Part shown: piece after piece, positions 13,157-15,070 of the stretch
Position numbering within the stretch: position 1 is the stretch's first letter
Layout: each line of letters begins with the position of its first letter
Assembly (NCBI GenBank): GCA_934086315.1
Contig: CAKOHZ010000001.1
Location: forward strand, 251,839-315,838
Length of the DNA: 64,000 nt
DNA from: an uncultured Bacilli bacterium
GTDB lineage: Bacteria; Bacillota_I; Bacilli_A; RF39; UBA660
Reading direction: 5' to 3'
Translations under genes and position numbers: made by a program
The notes under the pieces: generated by a model
Databases searched by the model: none
What the model saw: the letters and a program-made list of their open reading frames with translations, nothing else
Told to the model about the DNA's origin: nothing

Positions 13157-13777
13157 ATGAGAGCAGAAACACGATTAATAATTAATAATTATTATGATGA
13201 AGATGATAAGAAATTATTTTGTAAGTTTGCTAAAATAATAAAAAATGATTATAAAATAAAAGATACACATAGACAAATATGGGAATATGATCAATCACTA
13301 GGAGGATTTGGAGGATATGCTGCTCCACTAAATCCAACTCTTAATCCATTTAATTCTTTAGGGGATTTTAGAAATGTTTTTAGGAGTCTTCAATATGCTA
13401 GAAGTGATATGTTTTATTGTACAAGACCTAGACATATTATCATTGATACAGCACTTCATGTTGAAACGTTGGTTAAACTAGTTTTGTCAAAAAATAAATT
13501 ACTTAAGTTTATTTATAATAGAAGAGAATTTGGAAAAAATATAGAGCAATTGTATAAAGAAAATATTATTAATAATGATTTATATGAAAGACTTAACAAT
13601 TTAAGAAAAATTCTGAATTATGCAAAACATGATACTGATCCAGATAGGGATAATACATTTGATTATGAGGATGCAATAGTTTTTTATTTTGAAACAAGAA
13701 AAGTAGGTAATAAACTTCTTAAAAGTTTAAACTATCCAACTTATGATAAAACTTTTGAAATAAATGAAGATATTTAG
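13157..13777 (+). CDS. hypothetical protein (206 aa), C-terminal helical region with a degenerate HEPN-like block
   Basis: RBS 'agaggt'. 'LNNLRKILNYAKHD' (13604..13630) resembles the h-R-x-x-R-N-x-x-x-H layout, but the canonical R of the 'RN' is replaced. Otherwise there is no recognisable family. Confidence 0.5.
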   Translation: MRAETRLIINNYYDEDDKKLFCKFAKIIKNDYKIKDTHRQIWEYDQSLGGFGGYAAPLNPTLNPFNSLGDFRNVFRSLQYARSDMFYCTRPRHIIIDTALHVETLVKLVLSKNKLLKFIYNRREFGKNIEQLYKENIINNDLYERLNNLRKILNYAKHDTDPDRDNTFDYEDAIVFYFETRKVGNKLLKSLNYPTYDKTFEINEDI

Positions 13778-13795
13778 ATAATTGGAGGAAGAATT

Positions 13796-15070
13796 ATGGC
13801 AGTATGCTTTTTTGATGATAATTATGATGAATCATACGAATGTGACTATACAGTTAAGAAATATAATATTGAAGTAATTGTAAATTATGAAATTGATAAG
13901 GAAATTGAACCAGATAATAATGGTGTAAAAAGTTTTGGCTTAAATACAAAATTTAAAGATAGAGATATTTTAATAATTGATTATAAAAATAAGAAAAACG
14001 TTTTATTAAAAGACGCTTATTATTGTGGTCATACCAATGTGTGGGGAACCCCAGATGGCGGTTCAAAAGCAAAATTTAGTTCTAGATATTATTTTTGTGA
14101 TAAAAATTATGATAAATTGTGCAACTTAAAGAAGACCCCTAAAGTAAGTAAAATAAGAATGTATAGTGGTTTAATTAATGAACTTATAGGACATCCAAGC
14201 TTATTTGAAGAAGATGTTGGTGATGAGTTTGTTATTAAGCTTAAAAGGAATACTATTAGAAAAAATATTATTTTAGGCATAAATAATATAAAAGAAATAA
14301 TCTTATCTGATGATTGGAGTCATATACATAGTTATAAAAATAATGATATTTCGATTAAATTAACTGGTTATTTAGAAATAGTTTTAAATAAGAGAATTAA
14401 TTACTATGATATATATGATTATATAAAAGAAACTATGGTATATCTACAATTAATAAGACCTAATAAATTAAAAATAGATAAAATTACAGTTTTTATTGAT
14501 GATGCATATTATGAACTTAGTATTCCAATTAATGAATTAGAATATAGCGATAAATATATTTCCAATAGTGTATCTACTGACTTTATAGAGTTTTTAACTA
14601 AGTGTTATAATTTAATACCATATAGAAAGTCTAAAAGTGAGATAAGAAATATACCATATATTATTTTTGAAACATCAAGAAATTTGGAAGATAATTTTTT
14701 AATGTTTTATAAATTTATAGAATGTTATTATAAAAAGCAAAATATAACTACCAATTTTATTTCTTATAGTATCATTAATAATTATAAAAAAAGTTCTACT
14801 ATGAGGAACGAAGAAATAGAAAATTTATCACAAGAAATAATATGTTTAAGAAATCATTATGTGCATTCCGGTTATTTTTTAAAAAATGACTCTTTAAAAA
14901 TTAATTTTAAAAAAGTTGGAAGAAAATCCAATCCAAAAAATTATACAGTTAACAAAATTGATGTAGACTGGATTTATGAAAAAACGAAAATATTATATGA
15001 GATAGTTATCGATATTGTTTTTAAAAATATGTTAAATTTTGAACAATATAAATTTGAAAAAAAATTTTAA
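13796..15070 (+). CDS. ApeA-like protein with a C-terminal HEPN domain
   Basis: RBS 'ggagga'. Canonical HEPN Rx4H motif 'LRNHYVHSG' at 14849..14866 near the C-terminus. The preceding ~280 aa are uncharacterised, as in ApeA (NTD + HEPN_Apea). Confidence 0.55.
   Translation: MAVCFFDDNYDESYECDYTVKKYNIEVIVNYEIDKEIEPDNNGVKSFGLNTKFKDRDILIIDYKNKKNVLLKDAYYCGHTNVWGTPDGGSKAKFSSRYYFCDKNYDKLCNLKKTPKVSKIRMYSGLINELIGHPSLFEEDVGDEFVIKLKRNTIRKNIILGINNIKEIILSDDWSHIHSYKNNDISIKLTGYLEIVLNKRINYYDIYDYIKETMVYLQLIRPNKLKIDKITVFIDDAYYELSIPINELEYSDKYISNSVSTDFIEFLTKCYNLIPYRKSKSEIRNIPYIIFETSRNLEDNFLMFYKFIECYYKKQNITTNFISYSIINNYKKSSTMRNEEIENLSQEIICLRNHYVHSGYFLKNDSLKINFKKVGRKSNPKNYTVNKIDVDWIYEKTKILYEIVIDIVFKNMLNFEQYKFEKKF

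Follow-up and report, generated by a model that had tools for sequence, protein, structure and literature searches.

A Putative ApeA_NTD1-HEPN Ribonuclease and an Apparently Optional HEPN-Fold Neighbor in the Backbone of an Integrative Element

The anti-phage protein ApeA is treated in the literature as a single-gene system (Gao et al. 2020), and the ApeA proteins described so far have no partner. Characterized members are about 580 amino acids (aa) long and combine a mainly alpha-helical N-terminal region with a Mid and a HEPN domain; they form homodimers and decameric or dodecameric rings, and their N-terminal and Mid regions form a ligand pocket together with HEPN (bioRxiv 10.64898/2026.01.26.701840, 10.64898/2026.03.20.713152). 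The HEPN_ApeA domain carries insertions between helices H3 and H4 (10.64898/2026.01.26.701840). HEPN domains act as dimers, and characterized HEPN defense proteins act as homodimers. A second architecture, the computationally defined ApeA/BMEI1217 family (PF18862 plus PF18739; Anantharaman et al. 2013), joins HEPN_Apea to ApeA_NTD1, a domain described as about 300 aa long and mostly beta (PMC3710099). Here we analyze two adjacent genes, encoding proteins of 206 and 424 aa, at the right end of a 12.8 kilobase (kb) integrative element in an uncultured Bacilli bacterium (contig CAKOHZ010000001.1; the 64,000-nucleotide (nt) stretch analyzed is hereafter called the window). The pair had been proposed, from the letters of the window, to be an undescribed two-component variant of ApeA with a degenerate HEPN-like partner. 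This original prediction was right that no ApeA partner has been described, and its two-component ApeA is partly supported.

Our preferred reading, to which we assign a probability of roughly 0.55, is that two separable defense-type genes of the element backbone are optionally paired in this cassette, the 424-aa protein being autonomous and the 206-aa protein a portable module. In the best-supported reading of its sequence relatives, the 424-aa protein would be a self-contained ribonuclease (RNase) of ApeA_NTD1-HEPN type for which the 206-aa gene is dispensable, because most of those relatives lack that gene. A scan of one genome per species recovered relatives of the 424-aa protein at 27 species-level loci, of which five have a 206-aa homolog upstream and 22 have none. 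One of the five (L004) has a split 206-aa gene beside an intact ApeA-like gene, and in two sister elements at the same amidase site (L003 and L008) the recombinase gene is followed directly by the ApeA-like gene. In the tree of ApeA-like proteins, the loci bearing the 206-aa gene make up three separate clades, with loci devoid of it in between. Unlike type II toxin-antitoxin pairs, in which the toxin never occurs without its antitoxin, each gene is intact without the other in many genomes. An obligate two-component system is contradicted by these loci, including those in the same site. The expected co-occurrence holds to the extent that the pair recurs in several contexts and co-diverges, though in a minority of ApeA-like loci: it is kept in four different upstream contexts, with gaps of −14 to +20 nt, and where both genes are present the identities between loci rise and fall together for the two proteins (pairwise comparison, r = 0.99, about four independent lineages). 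The association is thus real and old, yet each gene survives intact without the other.

Neither is the 206-aa family dedicated to ApeA. Its members have an ApeA-like gene, a gene for a 256-aa protein, a TIR gene, a type I restriction-modification (R-M) system or no partner downstream, and a SoFic-like helix-turn-helix (HTH)-Fic gene, a type IV restriction endonuclease (REase), a REase-ARP or a caspase-family gene upstream (Table 1), and the 206-aa tree clusters by partner type. The family behaves as a portable module directly beside various effector or defense genes, and sometimes stands alone. The HTH-Fic gene lies 6–9 nt upstream in about 18 loci, and the third gene after this constant Fic-206 pair encodes either an ApeA-like or a 256-aa protein. 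Same-strand gaps to the downstream gene range from −14 to +31 nt for three unrelated effector-like genes. Several of the partners belong to known or candidate single-gene systems, namely the Fic protein (SoFic/PDC-S04), the TIR protein (PDC-S66) and the type IV REase. No 206/ApeA-like fusion occurs among 368 family proteins, and a profile of the 424-aa protein and its close homologs revealed no N-terminal domain shared with the 256-aa and TIR partners.

The 256-aa protein (L033 5638–6408 and about 13 other loci), whose gene follows the Fic-206 pair where an ApeA-like gene would otherwise stand, is a candidate effector that is still uncharacterized; its cluster of 419 sequences is unnamed and has no Pfam, PADLOC or PDB match. 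In another clade, ApeA-like genes have a second recurrent upstream neighbor, a gene for a 638-aa KAP-family P-loop NTPase (PADLOC PDC-S49) that ends 24–42 nt before them in L006, L009, L013 and L016 (about 8040–9976), at a locus adjoining a tyrosine integrase. Phage records scanned for either protein, and viral contigs scanned for the 206-aa family, gave no match. The sole homolog in the plasmid collection is a distant relative of the 206-aa protein (32% identity; L083 4378–6486) on the Exiguobacterium mexicanum plasmid NZ_CP040675.1, where its gene lies 60 nt downstream of that of a caspase-family protein.

Both open reading frames (ORFs) of the window are real, conserved genes. They are intact on many contigs in public assemblies, where every homolog is unnamed, and pairwise ratios of nonsynonymous to synonymous substitution rates (dN/dS) of 0.09–0.47 for both genes indicate purifying selection. 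Their predicted coordinates and the 18-nt gap were exact. A GGAGG ribosome-binding site lies 7 nt 5′ of the ATG of the 424-aa gene, and a terminator scan of positions 13084–15070 called none, including between the two genes, which are probably co-transcribed. Nor did the scan call a perfect hairpin of 10 base pairs (bp) directly 3′ of the recombinase stop codon and 48 nt upstream of the 206-aa start; as read from its sequence, this is no standard intrinsic terminator, because it lacks a T tract.

The best description of the 424-aa protein is that it has the ApeA_NTD1-HEPN architecture but no annotation as such. Its AlphaFold2 (AF2) model (predicted local distance difference test (pLDDT) 82.8) consists mostly of strands over residues 2–242 and has helices at 263–412. 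The RNxxxH motif, which had been located correctly, ends a long helix (338–357) and is followed by a beta-hairpin insertion (366–386) and the last helix. R352, N353 and H357 are invariant in all 24 close homologs (alignment A1), and across 35 homologs reaching down to 19% identity (alignment A3) the only invariant columns are M1, E298, R352, N353 and H357, a conservation far above chance for an Rx4H string. ApeA_NTD1 (PF18862) is matched by 12 of the 24 close homologs, at 52–85% identity (best E 2.3e-7), and exceeds the gathering cut-off of 25.5 bits in three of four homologs scanned singly (P0042, 29.2; P0088, 27.7; P0111, 31.0). The window protein itself has no PF18862 match at E ≤ 1; it counts as an ApeA_NTD1 protein by transitivity, through the family of its homologs.

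HEPN_Apea (PF18739) matches neither the window protein nor any other member of A1. Four distant relatives match it in their C-terminal region (E 0.004–0.34; 11.8–18.0 bits against a cut-off of 24.4), and a homolog search seeded with one distant relative (P0251) and aimed at Pfam-annotated HEPN_Apea proteins returned just seven unannotated proteins. In the Pfam check that had been proposed for the 424-aa protein, ApeA_NTD1 turned up in homologs and HEPN_Apea stayed below threshold in more distant ones. Scans of Pfam, NCBIfam, PADLOC and PHROGs with the 424-aa protein gave no usable match, and whole-chain Foldseek searches of the model against the PDB and BFVD gave nothing significant. The motif and helix layout fit a HEPN four-helix core with an Rx4-6H motif, but there is no significant HEPN match in Pfam, PDB profile or whole-chain Foldseek searches, and the HEPN-clan evidence is thin. 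PDB sequence-profile matches for both family alignments (methionine gamma-lyase, vinculin) were dismissed as chance. Foldseek likens the N-terminal domain weakly, in many matches, to Hcp and to the tail-tube proteins of phages (probability up to 0.98, low template-modelling score (TM), E > 0.02), a likeness of the modeled fold that is suggestive only.

Compared with the ApeA/BMEI1217 family, the window protein shares a beta domain of about 255 aa, conserved aromatics and a C-terminal Rx4H motif, and differs in falling under the reporting thresholds for both Pfam models. We know of no protein with an ApeA_NTD1 N-terminal domain that has been characterized experimentally. With the characterized Ec1ApeA and Ec2ApeA it has in common a single polypeptide with an N-terminal sensing region and a C-terminal split HEPN domain, both presumed here, Arg and His residues, putatively catalytic here, on the motif helix, and an insertion before the last core helix; by analogy, it would be expected to cleave RNA after sensing a ligand. 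Those proteins are about 580 aa long and predominantly helical, whereas here the length is 424 aa and the N-terminal domain is rich in beta strands. PADLOC, whose database includes an ApeA model, assigned no family to the window protein or to its homolog P0042 at E ≤ 1, and there was no PDB sequence match. Because PADLOC leaves it unmatched and the characterized proteins are longer with a helical N-terminal region, the 424-aa protein is outside the experimentally characterized ApeA family. The ApeA architecture of the original prediction can thus be retained in the sense of ApeA_NTD1 in half of the close homologs and an invariant RNxxxH motif, and not in the sense of the characterized family.

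The 206-aa protein has a HEPN-type fold, as judged from its AF2 model, which is all-alpha (pLDDT 92.4). Its top Foldseek matches in the PDB are HEPN proteins (probability 0.89–0.99; TM 0.60–0.68 by target; weak E-values of about 0.4–1), among them AF_0298 (2hsb; probability 0.99, TM 0.68 by target), 2q00, HepT (6m6u and 5yep), TT1696 and MtlR (6kcr); YggD (3c8g) is also matched. The original prediction of a HEPN-like protein with a degenerate motif is supported: positions 13604..13630 encode R150-KILNYAK-H158, and the residue before N154 is never Arg. In an alignment of 26 family members (A2), this canonical Arg position (153) is occupied by Leu, Met or Tyr, N154, K157, H158, T160 and D161 are invariant (the NxAKHDTD block), and R150 is Arg or Lys in the inner clade only and hydrophobic elsewhere. 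The plasmid homolog keeps the core N-x-[AS]-K-H-[DE]. Since many polar residues are invariant and partly kept at such a distance, the protein is more likely functional, its site being non-canonical, than a decayed relic. The family comprises 92 homologous clusters, all unnamed, and carries no annotation in Pfam, NCBIfam, PHROGs or PADLOC, the last of which gave no match. Two other interpretations were discarded. An HD-phosphohydrolase reading of H101...H158-D159...D172 was set aside, the fold matches being HEPN and not HD domains, and descent as a diverged paralog of the C-terminal domain of the 424-aa protein was rejected because hhalign shows no profile similarity between that domain and the 206-aa family (probability 0.2%).

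DUF4145 (PF13643) is a HEPN family tied to R-M and other defense genes (PMC3710099), present in RAZR/PD-T7-4, where it is a proven RNase (PMC13017515), and in some HsdR N-termini. It matches the 206-aa protein across the motif helix at E 0.0045 and 17.4 bits, against a gathering threshold of 23.1 (P0192, 13.6 bits), and the HsdR N-terminal region NF008521 is matched weakly (E 7e-4). The likeness extends to the HEPN-type fold, the R-M and defense neighbors, and the spacing of R146 and H154 in RAZR, which equals that of R150 and H158 here (Rx7H). The 206-aa protein differs in scoring below the gathering cut-off, in its unconserved Arg, in the lack of a PADLOC match, and in its family's own three-helix region, Gly-rich loop, and RNVFRSLQYAR and KHDTD blocks. 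The N-terminal Cys4 zinc finger of RAZR is also absent, the 206-aa N-terminus consisting of three helices and the whole protein containing two Cys. A HEPN-type fold that keeps the His and has lost the Arg is also found in the c2405 family ("conserved H but lacks R"; PMC3710099), and MtlR and YggD are non-catalytic HEPN-fold regulators; none of these shows a detectable sequence relationship to the 206-aa family, whose context is defense islands and not sugar regulation. Judging by its model, the 206-aa protein belongs to an undescribed, Arg-less, DUF4145-like HEPN-fold family.

The element that carries the pair is inserted in a cell-wall hydrolase gene. Joining positions 1991–2256 to 15096–16044 restores a single reading frame (...NAGGGGDGAEV...), and the alignment of its product with solved Amidase_3 structures runs through the junction without a break. 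All ten places with the exact 206-aa protein have an HTH_36 gene, the serine recombinase, the 206-aa gene, the ApeA-like gene and the 3′ part of the amidase gene, while the left-hand cargo varies between type III R-M, as in the window, and AIPR with a SLFN-like helicase. Because the right-arm gene order is constant in these ten places while the left-hand genes differ, the pair sits in a conserved right-arm backbone beside attR, outside the variable cargo. It had been placed correctly between the recombinase and the element end, but not in a cargo slot as supposed. Skin-type intervening elements interrupt sporulation genes, from which a SpoIVCA-type large serine recombinase excises them. The window element resembles them in its terminal large serine recombinase, imperfect inverted repeats and in-frame interruption of a gene, here a cell-wall amidase; it differs in that it carries defense genes and has variable cargo in many genomes.

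Table 1. Features of the window and gene orders around members of the 206-aa family
Feature or gene order	Position or loci	Strand	Basis or remark
206-aa gene	13157..13777	+	ORF; all-alpha protein, HEPN-type core
Three N-terminal helices, conserved Gly-rich loop GGxGGYAAPLNPxxNPF (residues 49-65), HEPN-type core (~69-190)	within 13157..13777	+	
Second invariant polar block R72-N73-VF-R76-S-L-Q79-Y80-A-R82, helix 69-86	13370..13402	+	Alignment A2
Degenerate HEPN-like block R150-KIL-N154-YA-K157-H158-D-T160-D161, end of helix 140-158	13604..13639	+	Alignment A2, model
Spacer between the 206-aa and 424-aa genes	13778..13795	+	18 nt; GGAGG ribosome-binding site 13784-13788
424-aa gene (ApeA-like)	13796..15070	+	ORF; beta N-terminal and helical C-terminal domain
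N-terminal beta-rich domain, ApeA_NTD1 type (~residues 1-255)	13796..14560	+	AF2 model, PF18862 matches of homologs
C-terminal helical HEPN-type domain (residues 258-424)	14567..15070	+	Model secondary structure, sub-threshold PF18739 in relatives
Rx4H putative catalytic motif R352-N353-H-Y-V-H357	14849..14866	+	Invariant in alignments A1 and A3
Perfect 10-bp hairpin ACTTTGTTCC-AAAA-GGAACAAAGT	13086..13109	+	Sequence; directly 3′ of recombinase stop
Large serine recombinase (Resolvase + Recombinase + Zn_ribbon_recom)	11494..13083	+	Pfam, NCBIfam
Element insertion	2257-15095		12,839 bp (12.8 kb), splitting the Amidase_3 + 4xLysM cell-wall hydrolase gene
Element left end GGCAATAATCATTGTGTAACG, imperfect inverted repeat of the right end	2255..2275		Sequence; amidase 5′ part 1991-2256
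Element right end CGTTACACTTTGATTATTGCC (attR side)	15072..15092		2 nt past the ApeA-like stop codon; amidase 3′ part resumes at 15096
Amidase halves	ORF 1991-2293 and ORF 15088-16044		Amidase_3 + 4xLysM
Type III R-M pair, Mod 624 aa + Res 766 aa	6356-8230 and 8233-10533		Complete; element cargo
Recombinase, 206, ApeA-like	window; L001, L002, L044, L045		
HTH-Fic, 206, ApeA-like	L004, L005, L007, L054		
Small ORF, 206, ApeA-like	L041-43, L059		
HTH-Fic, 206, 256-aa unknown	about 13 loci		
206, TIR	L037, L060, L061		
Type IV REase, 206	L062-68		
REase-ARP, 206	L028-30		
206, type I R-M	L032		
Caspase-family gene, 206-like	Exiguobacterium plasmid		
Orphan 206	L031, L038-40		

Several other genes lie in and around the element. 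The type III R-M pair is replaced by AIPR and a SLFN-like helicase in the sister elements L074 and L078. A gene for an AbiEi-type antitoxin or regulator (4887–5489; PADLOC AbiEi, E 5e-54) is followed after 12 nt by a Fic gene (5502–6338; PDC-S72, E 1.5e-80) where an AbiEii nucleotidyltransferase would be usual, and the two may form a pair of AbiE type in which a Fic protein is the toxin. An AbiLi-like AAA_21 ATPase gene (2700–3935, minus strand) lies inside the element, whereas a RloB/AbiLii-like gene (16–855, plus strand) is found beyond its left end, where the window begins. That these two make up a single AbiL pair is improbable, because they are on opposite strands with the 5′ part of the amidase gene between them, and the partner of the RloB/AbiLii-like gene may lie beyond the window start. 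A SleB/CwlJ-type Hydrolase_2 gene is found nearby (18453–18881, minus strand). On one metagenome contig (L080 7932–12571) the same amidase gene seems to hold two tandem elements, the ApeA-like gene being followed by a short amidase fragment, a second gene set with a 521-aa serine recombinase and then the LysM part.

Under the preferred reading of two separable genes, we infer RNase activity and a role in defense for the 424-aa protein. Its beta-rich N-terminal domain, the presumed sensor, would detect an infection cue, the two C-terminal HEPN domains of a homodimer would form a composite R352/N353/H357 site, and the activated enzyme would cut tRNA or other RNA and so halt phage growth. Any cross-talk with the 206-aa protein is conjectural. 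Our best guess is that the latter is an auxiliary module whose ligand may be a protein, a nucleotide or RNA and which would either tune its neighbor or work in parallel, and that it is neither an antitoxin nor an obligate subunit.

Several points weigh against this reading. Tight spacing, co-divergence and the swapping of effectors after a constant 206-aa gene would also be expected of a coupled sensor/effector system, and "separable" does not prove "independent". The correlation between the two proteins, which speaks for their association, has only about four independent lineages behind it. The window 424-aa protein has no direct HEPN-clan match in Pfam, its relatives match HEPN_Apea below threshold in every case, and no HEPN protein is among the best 50 whole-chain Foldseek matches of its model. 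The RNase, defense and interaction roles are all predictions from sequence.

The alternative that survives best, although we think it unlikely, is a modular multi-gene system in which the 206-aa protein, as a portable sensor or regulator, would be functionally tied to the effector that happens to be encoded next downstream, often with a SoFic-like Fic protein upstream as a third component. Such coupling would account for the short same-strand gaps to three unrelated effector-like genes, for the HTH-Fic gene that precedes the 206-aa gene so closely before either of two third genes, and for the co-divergence of the 206/ApeA-like pair and its joint movement from one context to another; the TIR partner has been confirmed, and the distant plasmid homolog adjoins a caspase-family gene. 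Against this, genes in defense islands are tightly packed anyway, and every identifiable partner (ApeA, SoFic/PDC-S04, PDC-S66 TIR, type IV REase) is a known or proposed single-gene system. The absence of the 206-aa gene from most ApeA-like loci, its occurrence as an orphan in L031 and L038-40 and the lack of any fusion in the family likewise favor separable genes.

We consider it improbable that the pair is an obligate two-component form of ApeA whose catalytically degenerate 206-aa protein would bind to the HEPN domain of ApeA and serve as its antitoxin, regulator or sensor. In favor of this are HEPN-type features in both proteins, the dimeric action of HEPN domains, and adjacent genes that have an 18-nt spacer with no terminator between them and that co-diverge where paired. 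Most ApeA-like genes, however, are intact and under purifying selection without a 206-aa gene, including those of sister elements at the same site, so that the 206-aa protein cannot be an essential antitoxin or subunit, and L004 combines an intact ApeA-like gene with a split 206-aa gene. A HEPN-HEPN heterodimer is unlikely as a general logic, since the helical domains of the two proteins have no profile similarity and the 206-aa family also pairs with several genes that lack a HEPN domain; characterized ApeA proteins, moreover, are homodimers. It is similarly doubtful that the pair, or the ApeA-like gene alone, serves mainly to stabilize the element by addiction or exclusion and not in phage defense, since its place in the conserved backbone by the recombinase and attR while true cargo varies, and the position of the ApeA-like gene as the last before the amidase 3′ part even in the diverged sisters L003, L004, L007 and L008, are offset by ApeA-like genes outside such elements (beside R-M genes, KAP NTPases and tyrosine-integrase elements), by the lack of a consistently present antitoxin-like partner and by the anti-phage function of characterized HEPN single-gene systems.

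The 424-aa gene adds a new member, unannotated so far, to an architecture that is uncharacterized and defined by computation, and the 206-aa family is an undescribed HEPN/DUF4145 variant with an unusual distribution of neighbors. The element is a widespread, cargo-swapping carrier of defense genes within a cell-wall amidase gene. Characterized ApeA proteins sense small ligands via a helical N-terminal region, unlike the beta-rich NTD1, and the ApeA_NTD1-HEPN family, common in human-gut Firmicutes, is a clean candidate for learning what NTD1 senses. The tight, repeated linkage of the 206-aa family to unrelated effectors bears on whether Arg-less HEPN-fold proteins serve as regulators, sensors or effectors in defense islands. 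In MNT-HepT, AMPylation controls a HEPN protein, an analogy for the Fic and 206-aa proteins. By analogy, and tentatively, the family might be a new portable adaptor or sensor for interchangeable effectors (the ApeA_NTD1-HEPN RNase, TIR proteins, the 256-aa putative nuclease and perhaps caspase-like proteases), often with a SoFic-like AMPylase; were that so, it would define an unrecognized family of modular two- or three-gene immune systems.

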